The notes under the pieces were generated by a model. The model was given only the letters and a program-made list of their open reading frames with translations, was not told the DNA's origin and made no database searches. The translations under genes and the position numbers were made by a program. 64,000 nucleotides of DNA from Acutalibacteraceae bacterium (GTDB lineage Bacteria > Actinomycetota > Coriobacteriia > Coriobacteriales > QAMH01), in the NCBI GenBank assembly GCA_963606965.1, contig CAVDAL010000032.1, forward strand, positions 25 through 64,024. Direction: 5' to 3'. How positions within the stretch are numbered: the first letter of the stretch is position 1; each line of letters opens with the position of its first letter. Shown here one piece after another: positions 3,090-36,691 of the stretch.

Positions 3090-4061
3090 TTATTCAAGAG
3101 ATTTAAATCCAAGATCTGCCATTGTCATATCAAGGTTACTATCATTTACTATATTTTGTAATCTTTTAGTAATTGATTTAAGAATTGAAGGTGTGCAAGA
3201 ATTAAGAGAGGAAATATTAGAACTACTACTGGAAGCACGTGTGGATAATTTTAAGAGACTTTGCACATATTCTAAAGATTCAATAATATCAGAACTAGGG
3301 CTAGCATTGAAAACATTCGAGCTATCTATTGCCCAATCAGATAAATTATCTCCTAATTTATAATTTTCTACAAACCATACACTTTCAGCTTGTTCGTAAT
3401 GAGGATACAAAAAAGACATATTAGCAAATGTTCCATTTACCATTGCTATTATTCCGTGTTCATCTGTATATACGAATGAAAAGACAAACAACTTTGCAGT
3501 AGTGCTATTACCAGATTTATTATTATTATGATAAGAGATGTCAAAACCAGACTTGTCTTCGCGTACTGCAATCCAATTTAGTGATTTGTTTTCATTAAGC
3601 TTATCTTGATTCTTTTCTAAATAATTAAGAAACATATTCCATTTACATAAAGATAACTTATTATCACTATCTTTAAAATTATTCAGACCTTCGTATATAG
3701 AGGCAGCTTCTTGGTAACTTCCATTATTAAATAATGATTCGGCTTTATTGTATTTATAAAGCGGAATGCCTAAAGTAATCCCAAGAATAATTAATACAAC
3801 GCAGATACAAACAATAGAAATTATTATTGGTTTTTTATGAGATTTTTTAGGTTTTTCTTGAGGACTTTCTTCAGATGGAATATCTGGATTTTTGGAAATT
3901 TCATCTGGTGAATCATTATCAGGTTTATCTAAATTAGAAGGTTCGCTGTGGGTTTGCTCAGTTGCAGATGCGGCGGCTGCTATATCATCGGCAGCTTCAT
4001 CAATTTGAGCATCATTTAAATTGACATTTTCATTTTGGTTTTCATCCATAATTTCCTCCAA
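3090..4061 (-). CDS. hypothetical single-pass membrane protein (acidic disordered N-terminus, TM helix, extracytoplasmic domain)
   Basis: 323-aa ORF with an Asp/Glu/Pro-rich N-terminus, one clear TM segment (IIISIVCICVVLIILGITLGIPL) and a TPR-like YQEAASIYEGL segment. Lies in a markedly AT-rich stretch. I recognise no family. Confidence 0.5.
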   Translation of the reverse strand: MEEIMDENQNENVNLNDAQIDEAADDIAAAASATEQTHSEPSNLDKPDNDSPDEISKNPDIPSEESPQEKPKKSHKKPIIISIVCICVVLIILGITLGIPLYKYNKAESLFNNGSYQEAASIYEGLNNFKDSDNKLSLCKWNMFLNYLEKNQDKLNENKSLNWIAVREDKSGFDISYHNNNKSGNSTTAKLFVFSFVYTDEHGIIAMVNGTFANMSFLYPHYEQAESVWFVENYKLGDNLSDWAIDSSNVFNASPSSDIIESLEYVQSLLKLSTRASSSSSNISSLNSCTPSILKSITKRLQNIVNDSNLDMTMADLGFKSLE

Positions 4062-4965: not shown

Positions 4966-5038
4966 GCGCTTTGTGCGAAATATAATGAGATAATGTTGCA
5001 AGATATTCTTGCAAGGTTCTAGATTCATTGGAGAAAAA

Positions 5039-12459: not shown

Positions 12460-13341
12460 ATGGCTATAGGCACTAGTGGAAAACAAAGTATAAAAGAGAG
12501 GATAGCAACGCGTAATGCTGCAAGAAATGCAAAGCGCGATGCTGTGAATCAACATTATGCTGAAGTTGCAAATAATGTTCGCGCAATCACTCAAGATGAA
12601 AATCAATCATGTTCATCTGCATCTTCCTGCTCATGCAAAGATGCTAGAAGGCTTTATCCTGAACAGGTTATAGATGGAGTTCCTCAAGCAGCACTTCTTG
12701 CTTCTCGTGGCTGTGGCAATCCTTTTGACAGAACATGTTTAAAGGAAGGCGACACTGTTTTAGACCTTGGCTGTGGCGGCGGCATTGATGTTTTGTTAGC
12801 TGCACAAAAGGTTGGGGAAAGTGGTCATGTCACTGGCGTAGACATGACAGAAGAAATGCTTCAAATAGCCAGGGAAAATCAAGCCCTTACTAACATTACA
12901 AACGTTGACTTTGTTCAAGGATATCTTGAACATCTTCCATTTGATGATAATTCATTTGATTGCGTAATTTCTAATTGTGTTATAAATCTTTGTGAAGATA
13001 AAAGCAAAGTTCTGGCTGAAGCCTTGCGCGTTTTAAAGCCACTTGGCTGCTTTGTTGTTGCAGATATTGCTTTTGATTCTGCATATTATCAAGCACAAAG
13101 TGTGGATTCTGCTGCTGCAATCTTGGGCTGCACTTCTGGCGTTTTGGACATTCAGCAGTACAGAGGAATTTTAAACCAACTTGGTTTCTTAAGTTCAAAT
13201 ATTGAAATTTATAGGCGCTATCCTTATGAAACTTTGCAAGAAAAGGCACAGCAAAAAGGAATGCAGCAAGACTTAGCAGCATATTCTCCGCAATATATCG
13301 ATAATGCTTTTTGCGGTGTTTATGTTACAGCTTATAAATAA
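12460..13341 (+). CDS. arsM: ArsM-family SAM-dependent (arsenite-type) methyltransferase
   Basis: SAM motif VLDLGCGGGID plus the ArsM-specific Cys contexts: CSC near the N-terminus, SRGCGNP, ISNCVINL and ILGCTSG. SD GAGGGGA precedes the ATG. Confidence 0.7.
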   Translation: MAIGTSGKQSIKERIATRNAARNAKRDAVNQHYAEVANNVRAITQDENQSCSSASSCSCKDARRLYPEQVIDGVPQAALLASRGCGNPFDRTCLKEGDTVLDLGCGGGIDVLLAAQKVGESGHVTGVDMTEEMLQIARENQALTNITNVDFVQGYLEHLPFDDNSFDCVISNCVINLCEDKSKVLAEALRVLKPLGCFVVADIAFDSAYYQAQSVDSAAAILGCTSGVLDIQQYRGILNQLGFLSSNIEIYRRYPYETLQEKAQQKGMQQDLAAYSPQYIDNAFCGVYVTAYK

Positions 13342-13345
13342 GTTT

Positions 13346-14326
13346 TTAATCAAATAGCATTTTTAAAGGATATCTTGGCACATCCCAATCTTCGCCTTTG
13401 AGCGTTCTGATTTTATGCAAAACTTCATAAGCTAAAATGTCAAAATCTTCACTTGGCCTTTTGCCTCTTGGGCTTGTTCCAGCATCTGCCCAAAGCACAT
13501 TGCCAGCCCCTGTTCCAAAAGGAATGCTTTCCCCAGCGCACAAACGCATGATACATGCGAGCTGTTTGACTCGTGCGCCGCTTATTGTTTCTGTATTTTC
13601 CATAGCAGTGCCTCTGGCAGGCGTGAGCTTGCCAATTCCAGAACAATATGGCTTATAAGCAATGACTTCAAACATTCGCTGGACAATTTCTTTAGGATCG
13701 CTTGATGCTTGTACTGGTTCAACAGATGTCATTATTTGCAATCCTGCAGATACAGCAGCATCCAAAGTTGCTATGCGGCTTTGCGGATTGATTGAAGTTA
13801 TTGTTCCTTCTTCTAGCCTGTGTGCATGATAAATCGATTGCACGCCGAGCTTTTTGAGTTTTTGCGCTTGCTCAAACGTAATGTCTCCGATGTTTGCCAT
13901 TACAGGCATATTGTCTGAAATATTTTCACGCACTGCTTGTACAACTTCGCAAAATTGATCAAATGGATATGCTGCTGTGCTCATCAAGCTAATTAAGTGA
14001 GCGCCGCCTTTGTCAAAAGCTTGCGCAAATCTAACAATATCTTCAAGGGGAACAATCTGTTCATTTTTGCTATATGTATTTTGTTTTGCAGCAAATTTAC
14101 AAAAGTCGCAATTTGCGGGGCAAGGCAATTTGTCTAAGCCAATTTGTGCATAAACTTGACCGATATTTTTTGAAGCTTTTCTAGAAATTATCATTGCAGC
14201 ATTTATTGTGCATGCAGCTTCAAAAGAATCTGGCTCAAATTCCATAAATCGCAAAGCTTCTTCTTCATTTAAAAGCTTGCCACGCAAAACTTCATCAAGT
14301 CGTTTTTCTATCCATTTATCAAGCAT
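13346..14326 (-). CDS. radical SAM protein, BioB/HydE-like TIM-barrel class (paralog 1), function unknown
   Basis: Cluster motif CPANCDFC (CxxxCxxC) preceded by YAQIGL. Shares blocks with 16865-17878: TSVEPV vs TCVEPV, and GAGNVLWADAGTSPRG vs SGGNLTWAEVGSNPRD. Lies 18 nt downstream of the SufS-like fusion gene. Confidence 0.75.
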   Translation of the reverse strand: MLDKWIEKRLDEVLRGKLLNEEEALRFMEFEPDSFEAACTINAAMIISRKASKNIGQVYAQIGLDKLPCPANCDFCKFAAKQNTYSKNEQIVPLEDIVRFAQAFDKGGAHLISLMSTAAYPFDQFCEVVQAVRENISDNMPVMANIGDITFEQAQKLKKLGVQSIYHAHRLEEGTITSINPQSRIATLDAAVSAGLQIMTSVEPVQASSDPKEIVQRMFEVIAYKPYCSGIGKLTPARGTAMENTETISGARVKQLACIMRLCAGESIPFGTGAGNVLWADAGTSPRGKRPSEDFDILAYEVLHKIRTLKGEDWDVPRYPLKMLFD

Positions 14327-14344
14327 TAGTCTTCCTTATAAATT

Positions 14345-16507
14345 TTATCTGTCCCAATAAAGTTTTGAACAAAGTGAAACACTTGTAAGCAAAGCTTCAA
14401 TATCTTCAAGCGTTGTATGCACAGCAATGCTTGCACGTCCTGTGCCAATTGTACCAAAAGCGCCTGAAAGAGGAATTGCACAATGCGAACCTGCGCGAAT
14501 TGCAACGCCGCGATTCCCGCAGAAAGCTGCAAGCTGCGGCGGCGTGACGCCATCAAGTGAAAATGAAACAAGTCCATTTTGTCCATCAGCTTTTGAATGG
14601 TCGCCCCAAATTGTAATTCCCCAGATTTTCTTTAGCCCAGCAACAAGTGCTTTTGTCATTGCAACTTTGTGGTTTTGGCGTTCGCCTTCATCTAAGCTTT
14701 CAAGATAGTCGATTGCGCCACCCAAAGCTATAGCTTGTGAAATTGCAGGTGTGCCTGTTTCATATTGAATTGCGCCAAGTCTCAAATAGTAAGAGTCAAG
14801 CGACACATGAGAAATTACACCTCCGCCCAATGCAAGCGGGTCCATTTCTTCAAATGCATCTGGGTGAATCCACAAGCCACCAATCCCAAATGGTGCATAC
14901 ATTTTGTGCCCTGAAAATGCAATAAAATCAGCACCTGTTTTATAAACATCAATTTTTTGATGCGGCATTGATTGCGCAGCATCCAGCACAAATCTAGCTC
15001 CGCACTCATGTGCCATCTTTGCCATCTTTTCAACTGGCGCTTTAATTCCTGTGACATTTGAAATATGTGCAATGCAAACAAGCTTTGGCTTTTGTTCAAG
15101 AAGCTTTTCATAAGCTTCCATGTCAAGTCTGCAATCAGTTGTTAGCGGCAGGGCTTCCAATCTTGCACCCTTGCGTTGTGCCAAAGCAAGCCATGGCAAA
15201 TAATTTGAATGATGCTCAGCAATTGTGCTGATAATCAAGTCACCTTCAGAAATATTATGTTCGCCCCATGCTAAAGCAACAAGATTTAGCGAATCACTTG
15301 TATTCTTTGTATATACAGTTTCACGCCTGGAAGCGCCAATATAATCTTCCAACTTCGCTCTGGCATCATTTAGCATAGCCGTTGCTTTTGCAGAAAGCTC
15401 ATAAGCACCTCTATAAACATTTGCATTTTCATGCTTGTCAAAATTTTCCTGTGCTTGCAAAGCTTGGAAGCAACGCTGGCTTGTAGCAGCAGAGTCTAAA
15501 AATGCTAAGCTGTCTTTGTTTTTTGTATCCAGCAAAATGGGGAAGTTTTTGACTTGGCTTTTTCCAAAAGCATCCGCATCTGTTAGCTTTTTGCGCAAAG
15601 GCATAGGGAATGCTTTGTTTAAGGATGAAATAACATCTTTAGCTGCGTCGATAAGCTGCATATCAGCATTGTTATAGTTTTCTTTCTTGTGCTTTTTGCC
15701 TATGCTAAGCTTCATTTGTTCATGCGCAATACGCACAGCTTCACGCGCGCTCAAAGTGCATTCTTTTTCAAAGTCTTCAACGCGCTTGCAAGCTGGCAAA
15801 TTTGAGTCAAGGCGTTCTTCACCAAAATTATGATCCTTAATTTTGAGCATTGGAAGAATGCGCTCTTTTGGTGTCATTTCATAGATGGAATTTTCAAGCA
15901 AATCGCGCGAAACCAGAAGCGGAGTGTGGCGTGTCCATGCAATCCAAGATGTAACGCAATCAAGACTTGTATCATTGCGAAAATCTTGGCAAACTTCAAT
16001 TATGTGAGCAGGCGTCAACCTGACCTGGTCGCATGAAAGCAAGATAATTGAATCAATATCCGGATCATCTTCAATTTCTTCAAAAGCTATATCAAAAATC
16101 CCTTTTGTGAAACTGAACAAATCGAAAAAGCCAGATTCTTTGCTAGCTTTAGCATCCTTTTTGGAGTCATATCTAATTACGGAAGCATCATGTGCTAACT
16201 TTTTTGGCAACCTTAAATCTGGAGCTGCAATAATGTCAACGGATGCAAATTCGCACTGGCAAGCGCATTCATAAGATTGTTCAATCAAAGTCTTTTTCTG
16301 CCACACTTGCAAAGGTCTTGAGGCTTCTTTGCAAAGCTTTGGATCTTTACCAGGAATATCAGATTGCACTTTCAATGGAGTTGTGCCCATATTGTTTGCA
16401 AGAATGAATGCAGCTGTTCTTCCGCATGCTGCTTTCAACTCGTTTTTGCTTGGATTTTCCCGCTTAGGAATTTCCATGCTTGGTTGGTGCAACTTTCGAT
16501 CTTCCAT
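14345..16507 (-). CDS. fusion protein: unassigned ~340-aa N-terminal domain (possibly a degenerate MobA/MocA-like fold) plus a SufS/CsdA-type cysteine desulfurase
   Basis: C-terminal half carries LDSAATSQ, ANVYRGAYELS, AEHHSNYLPW, the PLP lysine in FSGHKMYAPFGIGGLW, ETGTP, and the active-site Cys in RAGSHCA. N-terminal half contains AAFILANNMGTTPLKV and IILLSCDQVRLTPAHI. SD AGAGGAG precedes the ATG at 16507. Confidence 0.75.
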   Translation of the reverse strand: MEDRKLHQPSMEIPKRENPSKNELKAACGRTAAFILANNMGTTPLKVQSDIPGKDPKLCKEASRPLQVWQKKTLIEQSYECACQCEFASVDIIAAPDLRLPKKLAHDASVIRYDSKKDAKASKESGFFDLFSFTKGIFDIAFEEIEDDPDIDSIILLSCDQVRLTPAHIIEVCQDFRNDTSLDCVTSWIAWTRHTPLLVSRDLLENSIYEMTPKERILPMLKIKDHNFGEERLDSNLPACKRVEDFEKECTLSAREAVRIAHEQMKLSIGKKHKKENYNNADMQLIDAAKDVISSLNKAFPMPLRKKLTDADAFGKSQVKNFPILLDTKNKDSLAFLDSAATSQRCFQALQAQENFDKHENANVYRGAYELSAKATAMLNDARAKLEDYIGASRRETVYTKNTSDSLNLVALAWGEHNISEGDLIISTIAEHHSNYLPWLALAQRKGARLEALPLTTDCRLDMEAYEKLLEQKPKLVCIAHISNVTGIKAPVEKMAKMAHECGARFVLDAAQSMPHQKIDVYKTGADFIAFSGHKMYAPFGIGGLWIHPDAFEEMDPLALGGGVISHVSLDSYYLRLGAIQYETGTPAISQAIALGGAIDYLESLDEGERQNHKVAMTKALVAGLKKIWGITIWGDHSKADGQNGLVSFSLDGVTPPQLAAFCGNRGVAIRAGSHCAIPLSGAFGTIGTGRASIAVHTTLEDIEALLTSVSLCSKLYWDR

Positions 16508-16560
16508 AAAAATCTCCTCTTATATGACTTGCCGCCTTTTGCACATAATGCAAATAGTAT

Positions 16561-16603
16561 ATAAAAAATGACAGATTCTTGAGGCCTGATCCAAGAATCT
16601 GTC
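16561..16603 (-). terminator. intrinsic terminator inside the 5' leader of the fusion/rSAM operon (attenuator or riboswitch expression platform)
   Basis: Perfect 12-bp stem GACAGATTCTTG / CAAGAATCTGTC (16570-16581 with 16592-16603) and a 10-nt loop. On the minus strand it is followed by ATTTTTTAT. It lies 54 nt upstream of the ATG at 16507 and before the SD. Confidence 0.55.
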
Positions 16604-16701
16604 AAGTCATCCTTCTTCTTTCATCTTTAAAATAATTGCCCATTTGTTCGGACAAATGCAAAGAAATAATACTTTTGCTGCCTGTGCTTCGACCGTTTAA
16701 C

Positions 16702-16731
16702 AGTATAAGACAATGTCAAATAAAAGCGCAA
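16702..16731 (-). promoter_or_regulatory. candidate promoter for the attenuated leader
   Basis: Minus strand TTGCGC (16731-16726), 18 nt, TATACT (16707-16702). This would give a leader of about 190 nt. Confidence 0.3.
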
Positions 16732-16792
16732 GTCCATACTTTGGCGAAAAATACTTGCATTCTTGCATATACTTTAGTTATTCTGTTAGTGG

Positions 16793-16810
16793 TTAGCGAC
16801 TAATAGCTAA
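16793..16810. promoter_or_regulatory. inverted repeat TTAGC-N8-GCTAA (candidate operator) in the divergent control region
   Basis: TTAGCGACTAATAGCTAA at 16793-16810, preceded by further TTAG copies (16774-16777, 16786-16789). About 55-70 nt upstream of the rSAM paralog 2 start. Confidence 0.3.
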
Positions 16811-16864
16811 AGTTACTATATGTTAAATAAAATAAAGAATTGTTAACTCGGGGAGATGTTTTTT

Positions 16865-17878
16865 ATGCAGAAGTTAACACCAAAAGTTGTTGAGCTTTTA
16901 GAAAAAGCTGAAGAAGGCAATGGCCTTGAATTTGACGAGATGGAATATCTTTATGGTCTTGACCCAACATCGCGCGATGCATGGCTTGTGCGTTGGGTTG
17001 CACATCAAATGTCTCTTGAAGCTACAAATGGTAAAGCTGAAATTCATGCACAAATTGGTTTGAATGGCAGCCCTTGTGGCAAAAATTGCAAGTTCTGCAG
17101 CTTTGCCGTTTGCAATGGTTTAACAAAAGAAAAAGTGGAACTTGATGTTGAAGATGTTAAAGCTTATTGCGATGCATATATGGAAGAAGGCGCAAACCTG
17201 ATTCTTATGCTAACAACAGCATCTTATAAGTTTGAAAAAATTCTTGAAATGGGGCAGGTCGCACGCGAAATTATTGGCAAAGACATGCCTCTTTTGGTAA
17301 ATACAGCAGACATGACGCTTGAACAAACAAAGCAAATTAAGGCTGCTGGCTTTAATGGCGCATATCATGCAATTCGCATGCGTGAAGGCGAAGATACAGA
17401 AATTCCAGTAGAAGAAAGACTTAATACAATTAAGAATTTGCAAGCGGCAGGCTTGTCAATTTCAACATGTGTTGAACCTGTCGGTCCAGAAGCAAGCGCA
17501 CATGAAATTGCAGAAGCTTCTGCACTTTGCATGAGCTATCCAAACAATTCTGCTGGCGTTGGCAGAAGAATTACTGTTCCTGGCACAATGGTTGAACCAC
17601 GCGGGCAGATTAGCGACCTTGTTGCTTCTTTATATGTTGCTGTCTATGGCCTTACAACTGGTTTCAAACCAGCTCTTAACTGTTCTGTTTGCTCACCACT
17701 TTCTGCTGTATCTGGCGGCAACTTAACTTGGGCGGAAGTCGGTTCTAACCCACGCGACGCTGTTGAACGCACAGAAAATGGCGGACGCGGTGCAAGCATT
17801 GAACGCTGCCGCAGCGAATATGAAAAGGCTGGCTGGGAAGTTTTAGAAGGACCTTCACAGGGCTGGATTCTAGATTAG
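16865..17878 (+). CDS. radical SAM protein, BioB/HydE-like class (paralog 2), function unknown
   Basis: CGKNCKFC (CxxxCxxC) preceded by HAQIGL, with blocks shared with 13346-14326. SD GGGGAG is correctly spaced for the ATG at 16865, whereas the track start at 16856 abuts the SD. Confidence 0.75.
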   Translation: MQKLTPKVVELLEKAEEGNGLEFDEMEYLYGLDPTSRDAWLVRWVAHQMSLEATNGKAEIHAQIGLNGSPCGKNCKFCSFAVCNGLTKEKVELDVEDVKAYCDAYMEEGANLILMLTTASYKFEKILEMGQVAREIIGKDMPLLVNTADMTLEQTKQIKAAGFNGAYHAIRMREGEDTEIPVEERLNTIKNLQAAGLSISTCVEPVGPEASAHEIAEASALCMSYPNNSAGVGRRITVPGTMVEPRGQISDLVASLYVAVYGLTTGFKPALNCSVCSPLSAVSGGNLTWAEVGSNPRDAVERTENGGRGASIERCRSEYEKAGWEVLEGPSQGWILD

Positions 17879-17887
17879 TAATTAACA

Positions 17888-17931
17888 AAATGAAATAAGA
17901 AGTGTGGGGGCGCTTCTTCTTTTCATTTTTT
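17888..17931 (+). terminator. probable rho-independent terminator (or partial terminator) after rSAM paralog 2
   Basis: AAATGAAA-T-AAGAAG / CTTCTT-CT-TTTCATTT bipartite stem (8+6 bp) with loop TGTGGGGGCG. The 3' arm runs into TTTTT. Confidence 0.5.
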
Positions 17932-17971
17932 AGGGCCTTTTGACAGCTTCAATTTGGGAGGAAATTAAAAA

Positions 17972-31457: not shown

Positions 31458-31479
31458 GTTTTTGAGCTAAATAGATTTG

Positions 31480-31511
31480 CGAGGCTAGCTAAATGCTGGC
31501 CTCGTTTTTTA
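31480..31511 (+). terminator. rho-independent terminator after purL
   Basis: 10-bp stem CGAGGCTAGC / GCTGGCCTCG (one G-U pair) with a 5-nt loop, followed by TTTTTTAT. Confidence 0.7.
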
Positions 31512-31560
31512 TGCTGCAATATCGTTCACCGGATAATTTTGACATAATTTTCATAATTAC

Positions 31561-31588: not shown

Positions 31589-31658
31589 CGCCGAGTTGTA
31601 AATTACATAAATCCTATGAAGCAGGTTGAATTCTTTTGAAAACAGTCTGTGGAGGAAC

Positions 31659-31739
31659 CTCTGGAGAACCTCACAAAATGTGAGTACCGAAGGTGCAAGG
31701 CTTGGAAACAAGCTGAAACTCTCAGGTAAAAGGACAGAG
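31659..31739 (+). promoter_or_regulatory. glycine riboswitch, single aptamer
   Basis: CUCUGGAGAAcc...GUACCGAAGGUGCAAgg...ACUCUCAGGUAAAAGGACAGAG matches the conserved glycine-aptamer blocks (CUCUGGAGAG / ACCGAAGGGGCAA / CUCAGGCAAAAGGAC). P1 is CUCUG/CAGAG. Only one ACCGAAGG core is present. The downstream gene is a sodium:alanine/glycine symporter, a classic regulon member. Confidence 0.8.
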
Positions 31740-31776
31740 CAAACATAGACTTACATGTCGTGCTTGCAAATTCTCC

Positions 31777-31803
31777 AGAGCTGTTTATACAGCTCTTTTT
31801 TTA
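31777..31803 (+). terminator. expression-platform terminator of the glycine riboswitch
   Basis: AGAGCTGT / ACAGCTCT 8-bp stem with a TTAT loop, followed by TTTTTTT. Ends 20 nt before the SD/ATG of agcS. Confidence 0.75.
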
Positions 31804-31822
31804 TGTCGAAAGGAGAACAAGG

Positions 31823-33241
31823 ATGCTGTTACAGATAGTACAAACTATCAATTCGTATTTGTCGGATTATGTTTTGGTCATTTTGCTTATTGGCGTTGGC
31901 CTTTGGTTCACTATTCGCACTCGCTTTGTGCAGGTGCGCTGCTTTGGTGAAGGTATGCGCAGACTTTTTGGTAACTTCAGCTTGCGCGGCAAAAAGCATG
32001 ATAGTGGAATGAGTTCATTCCAAGCTTTAGCAACTGCAATTGCAGCACAGGTTGGTACTGGTAATATCATTGGTGCTTCTGGTGCGATTTTGACAGGTGG
32101 CCCTGGCGCGATTTTTTGGATGTGGATTATCGCATTCTTTGGCATGGCAACAAATTATGCTGAAGCAACACTTGCACAAAAGACTCGTAAAGTTGGCGAA
32201 GATGGGGAAGTTAAAGGTGGTCCTGTCTATTACATTCGCACAGCTTTTACTGGCGGCTTTGGTAAGTTTTTGGCTGGATTTTTTGCTGTTGCAATTACAT
32301 TAGCTTTAGGCTTCTTTGGCTGCATGGTTCAATCAAATTCAATTGGTTCAACTTTGGAAAATGCAATTGGAATTCCAACATGGGTTATGGGCATTATTCT
32401 TGTTTTAATTTGCGCTGTAATCTTTCTTGGTGGAGTTAACAGACTTGCTTCTGTAACAGAAAAACTTGTCCCACTGATGGCAATGATTTTCTTGATTGGT
32501 AGCTTATTTGTTTTGATTGTTCGCATTAAATATATTCCAGAAACATTCTATTTGATTTTTAAATATGCGTTCCACCCAGACGCAATTATTGGCGGCGGTA
32601 TTGGCTATGCTCTTAAAACTGCAATCAGCCAAGGTGCAAAGCGCGGCCTGTTTTCAAATGAAGCTGGCATGGGTTCAACTCCACATGCTCATGCTCTTGC
32701 AAATGTTAAAAAGCCACATGATCAAGGCGTTATGGCAATGATGGGTGTTTTCATCGATACATTTGTTGTTTTGACTTTGAATGCTTTGGTTATCATTTCA
32801 ACAATGTATGCAGGCGACGGCATTTTAGCTGGTGGCTATACTGACAGCCTTGTTGACATAATTGGTAAGTCGAATTTGGCGCAGATGGCATTCGGTACTG
32901 TTATGGGTGAAAAGTTCGGCTCTATCTTTGTTGCTGTTTGCTTGTTCTTCTTTGCATTCTCTACAATTTTAAGCTGGAATTTGTTCGGCAAAATTAATGT
33001 TAAATATATGTTTGAAAAATTCCTTGGCAAAAAGAGCACAATCATTTATACAGTAATTGCACTTATCTTTATTTTCATTGGCACGCTTGCTTCAAATGAT
33101 CTTGTTTGGGAACTTTCAGATATGTTTAACCAGCTGATGGTTATTCCAAATGCACTTGCACTATTTGCATTAACAAAGCTTGTTATCAGCGCTGTTAATG
33201 AAGGATATGCTGAAAAGAAAAAGCAAAAAGAAGAAAAATAA
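31823..33241 (+). CDS. agcS: sodium:alanine (glycine) symporter, AGCS family
   Basis: Polytopic AGCS pattern: SSFQALATAIAAQVGTGNIIGASGAI, GGPGAIFWMW, NEAGMGSTPHAHA. SD AAAGGAGAA precedes the ATG at 31823. The track start at 31760 lies inside the riboswitch platform. Confidence 0.85.
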   Translation: MLLQIVQTINSYLSDYVLVILLIGVGLWFTIRTRFVQVRCFGEGMRRLFGNFSLRGKKHDSGMSSFQALATAIAAQVGTGNIIGASGAILTGGPGAIFWMWIIAFFGMATNYAEATLAQKTRKVGEDGEVKGGPVYYIRTAFTGGFGKFLAGFFAVAITLALGFFGCMVQSNSIGSTLENAIGIPTWVMGIILVLICAVIFLGGVNRLASVTEKLVPLMAMIFLIGSLFVLIVRIKYIPETFYLIFKYAFHPDAIIGGGIGYALKTAISQGAKRGLFSNEAGMGSTPHAHALANVKKPHDQGVMAMMGVFIDTFVVLTLNALVIISTMYAGDGILAGGYTDSLVDIIGKSNLAQMAFGTVMGEKFGSIFVAVCLFFFAFSTILSWNLFGKINVKYMFEKFLGKKSTIIYTVIALIFIFIGTLASNDLVWELSDMFNQLMVIPNALALFALTKLVISAVNEGYAEKKKQKEEK

Positions 33242-33271: not shown

Positions 33272-33301
33272 AAAGCGCCGCATTTTTTGCGGCGCTTTTT
33301 T
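33272..33301. terminator. bidirectional terminator between agcS and the convergent SufS-like gene
   Basis: AAAGCGCCGC / GCGGCGCTTT 10-bp stem flanked by an A-run and a T-run. Confidence 0.7.
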
Positions 33302-35054
33302 AATTTTTGCAAATTGATATTAAAACATTCAAGAACTTATCAATGTCTTCAAAACTGTTATAGCATGCAATAGATGCACGAACTGTTGAATCAAAACCAA
33401 GAGAATTAAGATATGGTTGCGCGCAGTGACGCCCAGAGCGTACTGCAATTCCATAGCTGTCTAGAATTTGTGCGCATTTATATGAAGACATGCCATCTAC
33501 AACAAAAGATATGGCTCCAATGCGTTCAGAACTTCTGCCAAATATTTTAATTTTTGGAATTTCTTCTAATCCCGATTGAATTTTATCCATAAGTTTTTGC
33601 TCATGATTTATGCGTGAATCTTCATCTATTAAAGTCCAAAAATTAATTGCAGCAGCAAGAGAAATTGCACCGTCAATAGGGGGAGTTCCAGGCTCGAACC
33701 GTTCAATTCCATTGCGCAAGATAAATGAACTTGTTGTGACATTTTCAACAGTTCCTCCTCCAAAAGTGCATGGCTGAAGTGTTTTTAAAAGCTCACTTTT
33801 AACCCAAAGTGCTCCAACTCCTGCAAGAGAACCAAGCTTGTGACCAGAAAATGCATACATATCACAATCAAGCTCTTTTGGCTTGTGACATGCATGGACT
33901 GCCCCTTGCGCTCCATCTATGATAATTATTGCATCTGATTTCTTCCTGGCTATGCTTGTGAGTTTCTGGTGTGGTATAGAGATTCCAGAAACATTTGAAA
34001 GCTGTGTAAATGAAAGAATGGCTGTGTTTTCGTCAATGATTTCATTAGCACTTTCTATGTTTAAAGTTCCATCTTCAAGCACTGGGATTATGCGAAGTTC
34101 ACAAGATTTTTCTTTAGCTAAATTCATCCAAGGAAGCAAATTTGAATGATGTTCCATTTCAGTTATGACAATATTTGATTTTTTGCCAAGTTTATTGCTT
34201 AGCATCCTTGCAGCTTTATTAAGCCCGTCGCTTGTGCCATAAGTAAAGATGAGTTCTTCTGCTTTAACATCTAAAAATTTTGCAACTTGCATTCTTGCTG
34301 AATCAAAAGCATCTGAACAAAGCTGAGACAATTTGTGTGTGCCTCTGTGGACATTTGAATAATTGCCTTGGCGCAGTTTGGTAATGCTTTGAATAACTTT
34401 TTGCGGCATCTGCATGCTGGCAGCATTATCCAAATAAACAAGACTGTGCCCATTAATTTCTTGCTGGAAAGCGCGAAATTGCAAGCGCAAAGCTTCATAA
34501 TCAAAGCATGATAAATTTTGTTTTTTGGAAGCGGCGACCTTATCTTGTGGGCTTTCATTGTGCATCACTGCAACTGCACAATTTTTGCCTGTACATTTTT
34601 TGATTGCTTCTATTAAGACATCAGCTAATTCGCTAATATTTTCCGCAAGGGCTGCCTTCATTGTGTCAAGCTTCACATTAAAATCGTTTTGAATCGCCAT
34701 CATCAGCAGAGCTTGTTTTGTATCAAGCGTACTTGCTCCATCACAAGTGGCAGAACGCAAAGATTCTTTAGCTAATTTTGGGTTTAATTTAAAAGCTTTA
34801 TCAATGCTTTTTTGTGTCAATTTGTCAAAGTCACAATTGCATTTTAATGTGTCGGCAAGTTCCAAAAGGTCAAATTTTGCGAGTATATAAAGCTTTAATT
34901 GCTCATCTATATAATCTTTTGAATAATTGTTCGACTGCACATTCTTAAGTATATTATTTGTGCAAGCAGAGGCTACTGACTCTCGCTTTTCAGTAGCCTC
35001 ATTTTTTATTTGCGTTGCCTGTTTCATAAGTGAAAATGTAGAAAATTTATGCAA
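33300..35054 (-). CDS. SufS/CsdA-type cysteine desulfurase with a ~185-aa N-terminal extension (carrier-protein-like helical segment)
   Basis: YLDNAASMQ, SNVHRGTHKLS, MEHHSNLLPW, PLP lysine in FSGHKLGSLAGVGALW, FEPGTPP, active-site RSGRHCAQP. The N-terminal extension contains CDGASTLDTKQALLMMAIQNDF. 8-nt overlap with the upstream gene. Confidence 0.75.
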   Translation of the reverse strand: MHKFSTFSLMKQATQIKNEATEKRESVASACTNNILKNVQSNNYSKDYIDEQLKLYILAKFDLLELADTLKCNCDFDKLTQKSIDKAFKLNPKLAKESLRSATCDGASTLDTKQALLMMAIQNDFNVKLDTMKAALAENISELADVLIEAIKKCTGKNCAVAVMHNESPQDKVAASKKQNLSCFDYEALRLQFRAFQQEINGHSLVYLDNAASMQMPQKVIQSITKLRQGNYSNVHRGTHKLSQLCSDAFDSARMQVAKFLDVKAEELIFTYGTSDGLNKAARMLSNKLGKKSNIVITEMEHHSNLLPWMNLAKEKSCELRIIPVLEDGTLNIESANEIIDENTAILSFTQLSNVSGISIPHQKLTSIARKKSDAIIIIDGAQGAVHACHKPKELDCDMYAFSGHKLGSLAGVGALWVKSELLKTLQPCTFGGGTVENVTTSSFILRNGIERFEPGTPPIDGAISLAAAINFWTLIDEDSRINHEQKLMDKIQSGLEEIPKIKIFGRSSERIGAISFVVDGMSSYKCAQILDSYGIAVRSGRHCAQPYLNSLGFDSTVRASIACYNSFEDIDKFLNVLISICKN

Positions 35055-36570
35055 TGACTGGTTCTAAACCAAGGCGTTCGGCCACAAAGCTAAGCTCTTC
35101 AACATAATCGCCATAAACAAGCGGAAGGTGGAGTCCAAAGCGTGCATGTTTTTGGAAGAAGTCATTAATGTTATTCACTTTGAAAATGAAGCCACCATTG
35201 CAGTTGTCTGTGTCATATCCAAGTCCAGCAACAATTTCGCCTTTTCCAATAAACATTTGCTTGCAATCAGAAGAAATACGAATCATCGTGATTGTTTGGC
35301 CTTTGTCTTTTTGGAAGTCATGGCGTTGAACTGCACCAAAGCCAGCATCCAGTGCAAAATGCCTTAATGCATATTCATCCAAATTATCAAAGCCATGGAA
35401 TGCACGGCATGGTGTTGAATGTGTGCACACATATAGATTTTCTTTTGTATCTACATCTGTTTCATATTTCGGGTCTGAAAAATTGATTTCGCCTTTTTCA
35501 TTAACTGGACATGGAAGAGTGTTACCCATATATGCAGCTTTTCCTGAAATTGCCATAACAATCAACATACAAAGAGCTGTGGTTACATCATATTCACAAG
35601 CTGAACCAAAGCCTTGTTCCAAATTTAGTGAATGTGTTAGGCAGAATGTGAATTGAATTTCATTCAGGCGGCGAGTTGAACATGAATCAGGACATGGTGC
35701 AGCAAAAGCAGAACAGTCATAATAATCCATCATCTTGCTAACCACTTTATATGCTTTTAGTGAATTGACAACAAATTTCTTTTCGATATTGCAGAAGCTT
35801 GCACCATTCATAAGTTCGTCAGCGAGTTCTTCACATTGAGCAATTTCTTCCTCTGTGATGTTATTTGTAATGCGCCCTGGAGTTGTATGATTTCCACCTT
35901 CTGGTAAAGGCGACATATAATCCATCATTTCATGTATATTAACGTAGCGGAAGTTTGTGCCCAACTTATCGCGCACCAAATTAAGGTTGTCGAATGTGTC
36001 TGTTCCGCCTGCCATTGCTTTGTCAGAACCAAAGCGTGTTGCACATAAGATGTTTGCATTGCGAACAATTTTTTCTGCAAGAAGGCCAATAAGTTTAGAT
36101 TTGAGTTCTTTCCAATCAAGAGCAAAAATCACATCTGCACCTCTGCGCACTGAAGATGCAAAGCAAAGCTGACCAAACATTTTGAATGGGTTTGCAGCAA
36201 TTGGCTTTTTTGTACGCAAGCAAAATTCTTCAATAACTGTATTAGCTCCAAATGCTGTATTTACAAGATAGAAGTCTGCTTCATGATCATCTTTAAGAGC
36301 TTCTTCAAACCATTCTTCTTTAATATCCCAATCATCCGTGCAACGAATAGTAGCTGGTTCAAGAACATTAAATCGTGGATCATTTTCAAGATTGAATTTT
36401 ATTGCTTGTGTGAATCCTTTATAGATTTTGCCATTAATTACTCCGTCAAAGCCTGGCTTTAATGCATCTCCTGAAGACATACGGCATGGACCTTCATAAT
36501 AATATTGATGTTCCATTGCAAAAAATACTGGCTTTACATTGAGTTGAAAATCCTTGATACTCTTTTTCAT
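35047..36570 (-). CDS. hypothetical enzyme, possibly of the L-fucose/L-arabinose-isomerase-like superfamily
   Basis: 507 aa from the ATG at 36570 (SD AGGGGAAAAG). Cys-rich core (FAAPCPDSCSTRR, GSACEYDVTTALCML) and a C-terminus (RFGLHLPLVYGDYVEELSFVAERLGLEPV) that resembles FucI/AraA-family C-termini. The family call is a weak recollection only. Confidence 0.35.
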   Translation of the reverse strand: MKKSIKDFQLNVKPVFFAMEHQYYYEGPCRMSSGDALKPGFDGVINGKIYKGFTQAIKFNLENDPRFNVLEPATIRCTDDWDIKEEWFEEALKDDHEADFYLVNTAFGANTVIEEFCLRTKKPIAANPFKMFGQLCFASSVRRGADVIFALDWKELKSKLIGLLAEKIVRNANILCATRFGSDKAMAGGTDTFDNLNLVRDKLGTNFRYVNIHEMMDYMSPLPEGGNHTTPGRITNNITEEEIAQCEELADELMNGASFCNIEKKFVVNSLKAYKVVSKMMDYYDCSAFAAPCPDSCSTRRLNEIQFTFCLTHSLNLEQGFGSACEYDVTTALCMLIVMAISGKAAYMGNTLPCPVNEKGEINFSDPKYETDVDTKENLYVCTHSTPCRAFHGFDNLDEYALRHFALDAGFGAVQRHDFQKDKGQTITMIRISSDCKQMFIGKGEIVAGLGYDTDNCNGGFIFKVNNINDFFQKHARFGLHLPLVYGDYVEELSFVAERLGLEPVIA

Positions 36571-36691
36571 CTTTTCCCCTTTATTCGATATTCGAACTGG
36601 CATTTTGCCAAAACATTAGCTGAATTGTATGAAGGCCAAATTTCTATTACAATGTTAAACTGCACAAGGAAATAAGAAAAAGGACAGCAAA

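Follow-up and report, generated by a model that had tools for sequence, protein, structure and literature searches.

What controls the expression of an uncharacterised operon that pairs a cysteine desulfurase-like fusion gene with a radical S-adenosylmethionine (SAM) gene? The operon lies on the minus strand of contig CAVDAL010000032.1 (Acutalibacteraceae bacterium, assembly GCA_963606965.1), at 13346–16507 of the 64,000-nucleotide stretch that we analysed, here called ‘the window’. As annotated with Pfam and NCBIfam, it encodes a fusion protein of 720 amino acids (aa; 14345–16507) and, downstream, a BioB-like radical SAM protein of 326 aa (13346–14326). The intergenic region upstream (16508–16855) separates the fusion gene from a divergent radical SAM gene on the plus strand (16856–17878). 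The first-pass annotation of this DNA had placed in that region a terminator-containing 5' leader that could be an orphan riboswitch or an attenuator. The attenuator half of this proposal is well supported; the riboswitch half remains only possible, because its specific parts fail. We put at about one in two the probability that the leader is a lineage-specific transcription-attenuation device, added to an operon that already had an ancestral operator at its promoter.

A perfect 12-base-pair (bp) hairpin followed by a T-run had been reported ahead of the Shine–Dalgarno (SD) sequence. It is there, and longer than described: the perfect arms, 16603–16592 and 16581–16570, extend to 14 pairs (16604–16591 and 16582–16569), the apical pair being G·U. 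The resulting hairpin (16569–16604, minus strand) has an 8-nucleotide (nt) loop and a predicted free energy (ΔG) of −18.8 kcal/mol. Its stem is perfectly paired, and it passes directly into TTTTTTAT at 16568–16561, the U-tract UUUUUUAU (16561–16568, minus strand), so that the stable stem-loop and the U-tract of an intrinsic terminator are both present. The terminator ends 53 nt before the ATG at 16507, upstream of the SD. The SD AAGAGGAG occupies 16521–16514 and the start codon 16507–16505 (together 16505–16521, minus strand). A start at 16507 is supported by the N-terminus of the fusion protein, which aligns with its homologues and carries an HQP motif at residues 7–9. Hairpins with a T-run and a ΔG of −18 kcal/mol or lower number seven in the window, both strands included, against 0.25 per dinucleotide shuffle, an excess of about 28-fold. 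The element at 16604–16561 is the sole strong one that lies after a divergent gene and before a start codon; the remaining intergenic ones are found either at gene 3' ends or between genes. Its strength equals that of the genome's bona fide 3'-end terminators. The description of the region as a terminator-containing 5' leader stands as well, there being no co-directional gene upstream, and no plausible promoter-like site in a sequence scan of the leader between the terminator and the SD.

Relatives of the window show that the hairpin is kept as RNA. We compared the leaders of the window and of the loci L001, L043, L044, L045, L003 and L002, and checked further Coriobacteriia loci for a leader. 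L001 has a leader identical to that of the window; L043, L044 and L045 stand at 94.3% DNA identity over 16 kb; and the fusion proteins of L002 and L003 are, respectively, 73% and 66% identical to the window's. Across the window, L043, L044 and L003, 13 of 13 aligned terminator pairs are kept, with two compensatory A–U to G–C changes and three one-sided changes; this covariation comes from only two independent lineages. Both compensations are in L003, where they are accompanied by wobble changes, by a U-tract (UUUUCUUAU) at the same place and by the same distance from the promoter. The possibility that the hairpin is a DNA operator palindrome was considered and rejected: L003 retains both the pairing, via G·U wobbles, and the U-tract. 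Because the pairing there is kept through G·U wobbles, the terminator is an RNA-level structure.

The rest of the leader is also constrained. Between the window and L043, positions 16508–16700 differ at 7 of 193 nt (3.6%), against 140 of 867 four-fold degenerate sites in five flanking genes (16.1%; binomial P = 4 × 10−8), and the 53 nt after the terminator have no substitutions at all. Since the leader diverges by 3.6% where four-fold sites diverge by 16.1% and the adjoining half of the intergenic region by about 40%, purifying selection acts on the leader as a whole. The leader RNA is evolutionarily protected. The check on homologous leaders and covariation suggested by the first-pass annotation was thus answered in part: the terminator is compensated in L003 and the leader is selected, but the leader is absent in L002 and in the high-GC homologues.

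Its distribution is narrow. The terminator and a conserved box at the 5' end of the leader (described below) are both present in the window, L043–L045 and L003, and both are absent in the sister locus L002. Among the genome contigs of roughly 30 high-GC Coriobacteriia homologues, none has a convincing leader terminator ahead of the fusion gene. A covariance model (R1) built from four leaders found no further copy in 426 kb (the window plus 36 related loci), and DNA-pattern and protein scans of Joint Genome Institute (JGI) metagenomes returned no further leader homologues among metagenome contigs. Recurrence before related genes in many taxa, as known riboswitch classes would lead one to look for, was not found: the leader occurs in the window, L001 and L043–L045, and in L003. 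It is restricted, then, to two lineages of uncultured low-GC organisms, in which it probably works much as the terminator attenuators of Gram-positive bacteria do. The sister locus has a leader of its own. At L002 243–345, a leader of 95 nt contains two mutually exclusive hairpins that share UGCUGCC (GGCGGCA/UGCUGCC and GCUGCCAG/CUGGCAGC); it has no U-tract and, taken as a whole, is not significantly stable (z = −0.86).

The control element that is widespread lies at the promoter. The candidate promoter proposed earlier, TTGCGC-18-TATACT, is present, with the −35 hexamer TTGCGC at 16726–16731 and the −10 hexamer TATACT at 16702–16707, both on the minus strand. It has the form of sigma-70-type promoters, whose hexamers lie 16–19 nt apart, and it is conserved: TATACT is invariant in the window, L001, L002, L003 and L043–L045, and the TTG, the 18-nt spacing and TATACT are all unchanged in L002 and L003, at 73% and 66% fusion-protein identity, where the −35 reads TTGAAG and TTGAAC. 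An automated promoter scan did not list this site, the −35 of which matches at three of six positions. The spacer is conserved too. The block TATTTGACAyTGTCyTATACT, invariant in the window, L002 and L003, is part of a 19-bp palindrome, TATAAGAC-AAT-GTCAAATA in plus-strand letters (16704–16722), that overlaps both the spacer and the −10. Its consensus, TATwAGAC-AAT-GTCTwATA, occurs once in the 64-kb window, where 0.07 copies are expected by chance. With up to three mismatches the motif is found in 21 of the 52 loci fetched, in hosts of 40–64% GC, and it precedes several units of the same gene cluster: the fusion gene, the BioB-like radical SAM/ABC (ATP-binding cassette) operon, pairs of AhpD-like and radical SAM genes, genes for binding proteins and the gene for an ArsM-like methyltransferase. 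Sites include L002 140–158 and 223–241, L005 5920–5938, L007 5928–5946, L015 5904–5922, L021 9574–9592, L022 2065–2083, L029 2853–2940, L051 4450–4468 and L052 5890–5908, and there are others besides. TATACT also follows the motif in the Ellagibacter loci L007, L010 and L011. There, the promoter motif is about 55 nt before the ATG, which would then lie roughly 30 nt after the −10; the leaders of these high-GC homologues thus appear short, with no room for one of the present kind. The palindrome is best read, from where it recurs, as the operator of a cluster-specific repressor and as the ancestral, family-wide control of the operon. No regulator gene adjoins the operator sites.

Between the promoter and the terminator, the leader begins with the 5' box GGUCGAAGCACA (16683–16694, minus strand). 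Eleven of its 12 bases are the same in L003 (GGUUGAAGCACA), it is unchanged in L043–L045, and its consensus is GGUYGAAGCACA. A hairpin domain follows, in which we recognise an inner hairpin, AUUUGUCC and GGGCAAUU around an 8-nt loop (16634–16657, minus strand), followed by UUAUUUU. The 7-bp hairpin CATTTGT/ACAAATG (16658–16652 and 16647–16641), on which the earlier aptamer proposal drew, is indeed present in the window, but two of its pairs are lost in L043–L045, and we have discarded it as an aptamer hairpin. The L043–L045 changes fit AUUUGUCC-N8-GGGCAAUU (16657–16634) instead: in L043 the change at 16656 makes the stem of the inner hairpin complete, while 16649 and 16642, the other two substituted positions, belong to its loop. 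A purine-rich linker, GAAAGAAGAAGGAUGAC (16606–16622, minus strand), joins the hairpin domain to the terminator; it is conserved between the window and L003 as GA(A/G)G(G/A)AUGA(C/G)CUUG and able to pair with the conserved UUUCUUU at 16666–16660. A mini-ORF (AUG-ACU-UGA after GAAGG) is probably non-functional, the SD–AUG spacing being 0–1 nt. The aptamer of about 90 nt that had been placed upstream of the terminator gains no support from folding: the 96 nt available for it (16605–16700) fold no better than shuffles (z = −0.01), and the sequence and loop size of this pre-terminator domain differ between the two lineages.

Taken whole, by contrast with its first 96 nt, the leader is unusually stable (z = −3.3 in the window and −3.1 in L003). 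It contains a long-range helix, P0. In both the window and L003, the first 30 nt or so of the leader, the 5' box included, pair with the segment just after the U-tract. The 5' strand of P0 (GCACA ... GCAAAAGUAU, 16669–16687, minus strand) pairs with 16560–16541, and the 3' strand (AUACUAUUUGC ... UGUGC, 16541–16560, minus strand) directly follows the U-tract. In the window, GCACA and GCAAAAGUAU pair with AUACUAUUUGC and UGUGC to form a duplex of −19.6 kcal/mol, against −10.1 ± 3.0 for shuffles. In L003, CAUGGU and AGCACA pair with UGUGCU and ACCAUG, and the duplex is −15.6 against −8.4 ± 2.6. Each lineage gives a P of about 0.007–0.01 (about 0.007 in the window), with partly different sequences. 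L003 has the block UUAUGUGC of the 3' strand without change; its partner there is AGCACA, and CAUGGU:ACCAUG lengthens the helix. The core pairs have probabilities of 0.95 or above, and the helix is present in the minimum-free-energy structure of the full leader. The full leaders fold into a three-way junction: P0 closes it, and its other two arms are the hairpin domain and the terminator hairpin. The consensus fold of four leaders is 95% paired, a figure derived from the same sequences and from two lineages only. P0 cannot be the antiterminator, because its 3' strand is made only after the decision to terminate; most likely, it stabilises or shapes the 5' end of the read-through messenger RNA.

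These elements suggest the following course of events. Initiation would be gated by a protein bound to the 19-bp palindrome (16704–16722), and transcription would start about 7 nt after TATACT, near 16695. The nascent leader would fold first into the irregular hairpin domain and then into the strong intrinsic terminator (16604–16561). Termination would be the default outcome, because no competing RNA structure of comparable strength is seen: the terminator pairs reach probabilities of about 1.0 and prevail in the ensemble, and the best alternative for its 5' arm adds only some 3 kcal/mol. With nothing promoter-like between terminator and SD, expression of the fusion/radical SAM operon would depend entirely on read-through. 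This might occur in a fixed fraction of transcripts or, which we think slightly more likely, might be raised by a trans-acting factor. Such a factor would presumably recognise the conserved single-stranded 5' box, GGUYGAAGCACA, together with the GGA-containing purine linker that abuts the terminator. In RNA that is read through, the 5' box would pair with the segment after the U-tract and close the three-way junction.

Several points weigh against this scheme. The start of transcription, termination at the U-tract and read-through are all deduced from sequence, and no gene for an RNA-binding regulator was seen among the roughly 27 genes scanned in the window. The leader occurs in no more than two independent lineages, and conservation of the 5' box and of P0 could therefore be shared ancestry in part. 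Two further points bear on a riboswitch. A ligand-stabilised helix of 5–7 bp, such as ON riboswitches employ, would not exceed shuffles, and a negative test for an antiterminator therefore leaves a riboswitch possible. And uniformly strong constraint over the whole leader, hairpin domain included, is also what would be expected of an aptamer.

A riboswitch is the first alternative to be weighed. It would be a new and rare ON riboswitch, in which a metabolite or ion connected with the chemistry of the operon (sulfur, selenium or a metalloid, or a SAM-related compound) binds the leader. The bound form would favour a short helix that joins the 5' box to the 5' arm of the terminator, at its base or its top, and so permits read-through. 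The layout and position of the leader are classic for this, the whole leader is under selection, and the 5' box and the terminator occur together. The competition between a P1 helix and the terminator that had been proposed is, on paper, available: GGUCGAAG (within 16694–16683) and CUUGAC are both present, GUCGA can pair with UUGAC at the base of the terminator, and both L003 substitutions there are pair-preserving wobbles. But the pairing is not above shuffles; when the 5' segment is shuffled, the fractions are 0.17 for the window, 0.55 for L043 and 0.77 for L003. A second arrangement, seen when the nascent RNA is folded up to the terminator loop, joins the 5' box by seven pairs to the loop and the upper end of the arm; it was also set aside. 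It, too, is not above shuffles, and the natural G to A change at 16591 (L043–L045) goes against it, breaking one pair of the best alternative helix while turning the apical G·U of the terminator into A–U and so improving the terminator. A mutually exclusive antiterminator and terminator were thus not found, the alternative being worth about 3 kcal/mol and the terminator −18.8.

Comparison with known RNA families points the same way. At the gathering threshold, a search of the whole window with Rfam 15 gave only a glycine riboswitch (31651–31747) and no match to the leader. At E ≤ 10 the leader gave hairpin-type noise, the best at 20.7 bits against a threshold of 54; the L003 leader gave noise only, and nothing in common with the leader of the window; and the 31 homologous loci gave no family and no riboswitch of any class. 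The earlier statement that the sequence fits no recognisable riboswitch class is upheld by these searches. Transcriptional ON riboswitches such as the pbuE adenine riboswitch resemble the leader in their position, in the use of a terminator as expression platform and in having a short 5' segment that could compete. They differ in that our leader has no Rfam match, no conserved multi-helix aptamer and a competing helix not above chance, and is found in two lineages of a single cluster. Very small aptamers associated with terminators do exist: the hydroxymethylpyrimidine pyrophosphate (HMP-PP) riboswitch, or thiS motif, is embedded in a terminator and holds conserved internal loops in the terminator stem (PMC6478431). 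The stem here is perfectly paired, without an internal loop to hold a ligand, and Rfam reports no thiS match. Add to this the shuffle-like pre-terminator domain, variable between lineages, and the absence of the leader from L002, from the high-GC homologues and, as a further copy, from the 426 kb searched, and a ligand-binding switch seems unlikely. The leader is outside every described family, the membership tests that were run having failed or given no decision. It is likewise doubtful, though conceivable, that it is the first example of a rare regulatory RNA class—a riboswitch or a dedicated protein-binding leader—for a metabolite of a radical-SAM/cysteine-desulfurase/ArsM-like pathway (sulfur, selenium or metalloid), with the terminator as one arm of the three-way junction and the 5' box toggling between the terminator base and its partner beyond the terminator. 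In sum, the leader is real and selected, but there is little evidence that it senses a ligand.

The leader might, alternatively, be unregulated. The terminator would then pass a fixed fraction of transcripts and damp a strong promoter, the fold would serve messenger stability or processing, and all regulation would take place at the operator. This agrees with the undetected antiterminator, with the operator being the family-wide control element and with P0, which forms only after the termination decision, as a stabilising or processing structure should. In another lineage, L046, moreover, the fusion gene is immediately preceded by a plain terminator that lies inside an operon. What a passive terminator leaves unexplained is the 5' box, 12 conserved nucleotides, and the purine linker, neither of which it needs. 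A hairpin of −19 kcal/mol followed by U6 would be expected to stop most transcripts, a weaker promoter would lower expression more simply, and the sister L002 manages without a leader terminator. For these reasons we doubt that the leader is passive, and lean slightly towards attenuation with a regulated read-through.

We think it improbable that the region is an independent gene for a small RNA of about 135 nt (16695–16561), with operon expression as a by-product of read-through, even though it has its own conserved promoter, a strong terminator, purifying selection and, in L003, a C-rich CCUCCU loop such as SD-targeting small RNAs use: the window lacks such a loop; the 53 nt past the terminator exceed the putative RNA body in conservation and pair with the 5' end of that body; this promoter is the operon's only one; and neither further copies nor targets are in evidence. 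Ribosome-mediated attenuation through a leader peptide, for which there is a 13-codon upstream open reading frame (uORF; 16643–16602) whose stop codon overlaps the first terminator bases and a 14-codon uORF ending 6 nt before the terminator in L003, was rejected and is next to impossible, as neither uORF has an SD, the ATG lies inside a hairpin arm and is ACG in L043, L044 and L045 with the rest of the leader conserved, and the two peptides are unrelated.

Among known systems, then, transcription attenuation as we propose it most resembles the protein-controlled attenuators of Gram-positive bacteria (BglG/LicT with the ribonucleic antiterminator (RAT), HutP, ANTAR/EutV, PyrR and TRAP). In these, too, a metabolic operon has a strong Rho-independent terminator between its promoter and its SD, the 5' arm of the terminator is flanked by short conserved segments that are single-stranded or form hairpins, and the terminator is the default. 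The known recognition elements—a RAT hairpin that overlaps the terminator, UAG/GAG triplet repeats, dual hexaloop hairpins or a PyrR box—were not recognised in the leader by eye, no dedicated scan beyond Rfam having been made, and no PRD, ANTAR, HutP, PyrR or TRAP gene occurs among the 27 or so window proteins scanned. The long-range helix between the 5' box and the post-terminator segment has no counterpart in those systems. That helix is closer to the stabilisers of 5' untranslated regions, stem-loops by which Gram-positive messengers are protected, and to leader–trailer pairing, where flanking sequences build processing stalks; in these the 5' end of the transcript is held in a long helix with a downstream segment in full-length RNA only; it differs from them in enclosing a terminator hairpin and a second hairpin domain within a three-way junction. 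The 19-bp palindrome resembles the repressor operators found in the spacer and −10 of sigma-70-type promoters, since it overlaps both and is conserved before several cluster units across genera. It differs in that no regulator is encoded beside the sites.

Gut Coriobacteriia carry the operon widely, and it is wholly uncharacterised, so that any handle on its inducer would help to assign its function. In this respect the operator is the more broadly useful finding, for it delimits a regulon open to mining and offers a handle for finding both regulator and inducer. The leader is a second layer of control, clearly under selection, that one low-GC lineage appears to have added. Should read-through prove to depend on a ligand, it would be a new riboswitch class that points straight at a metabolite of the pathway; otherwise it is an ordinary attenuator.

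The 720-aa protein joins an uncharacterised N-terminal domain of about 330 aa, with a weak match to the MobA-like NTP_transf_3 family, to a class-V aminotransferase of the SufS type, which reaches 411 bits against TIGR01979 and so stays under the equivalog cut-off. No sequence relatives of the N-terminal domain, or of the divergent radical SAM protein, were found in the PDB. With only residues 1–300 of the fusion protein as query, a search gave one match at 35% identity and missed the relatives at 99%, 73% and 66% that the full-length query finds, so absent N-terminal fragments are not evidence. Neighbouring genes encode an ArsM-like methyltransferase (12460–13341), a ThiF-like enzyme, an FNT channel, an NMT1/SsuA-type ABC importer, a DUF4418 protein and a MacB/FtsX exporter; ABC importer genes follow the divergent radical SAM gene (16856–17878). 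Some members of the fusion family (P0072, P0084 and P0090, of 1019–1114 aa) carry an extra ArsM-like methyltransferase domain, which ties the ArsM-like gene functionally to the fusion protein. Membership of the SAO system (Haft preprint 10.1101/2022.07.06.499078) was rejected, the ABC genes being far below the SaoA, SaoP and SaoX cut-offs. The fusion family is large and almost wholly confined to Coriobacteriia (Eggerthellaceae, Ellagibacter; 51–71% GC), and the window, at 40% GC, belongs to a small low-GC clade. The pairing of fusion and radical SAM genes is conserved in L001–L003, L041–L049 and others.

Other structures occur in and around the cluster. Within the divergent operon, a hairpin resembling a terminator (AAGAAGTG..CGCTTCTT, then CTTTTCATTTTTT) occupies 17897–17932 on the plus strand, between the radical SAM gene and an ABC permease gene, with the next start 46 nt further on. 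The spacer that holds it is nearly the same in L043 and L044, with 2 differences, and the hairpin may be a second attenuation point. In L046 and L049, lineages in which the order radical SAM–fusion–radical SAM runs on one strand, there are structures directly before the fusion gene: a GC-rich hairpin with T7, about 40 nt before the start, at 5012–5093 of L046, and a 14-bp hairpin without a U-tract, in the same place, at 3754–3824 of L049. Such structures may have recurred independently. On the window's own divergent side, the half of the intergenic region nearest the radical SAM gene (16735–16855), which is about 40% diverged from L043 with indels, retains a short conserved block, TTTGGCGAAAAAT.CTTGC, and the SD. 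Tandem repeats lie upstream of the radical SAM gene in L047 (621–986, units of about 37 nt, AAAACATGCyrCTTGCTGCrTG...) and in L038 (3438–4000, units of the type CGTCGCCGTGACCGAAACCTGCGAGG).

Elsewhere in the window, the glycine riboswitch aptamer (RF00504, 58.4 bits; 31651–31747, plus strand) lies just upstream of a gene for a 493-aa protein (31760–33241) and is preceded by a strong terminator at about 31460–31512. A further strong hairpin with TTTTTTATT (about 34969–35010, plus strand; ΔG −18.8), to which the leader covariance model gave a weak match (E = 0.13), lies at the junction of two minus-strand open reading frames, 33300–35054 and 35047–36603, and could point to a mis-called boundary between them.

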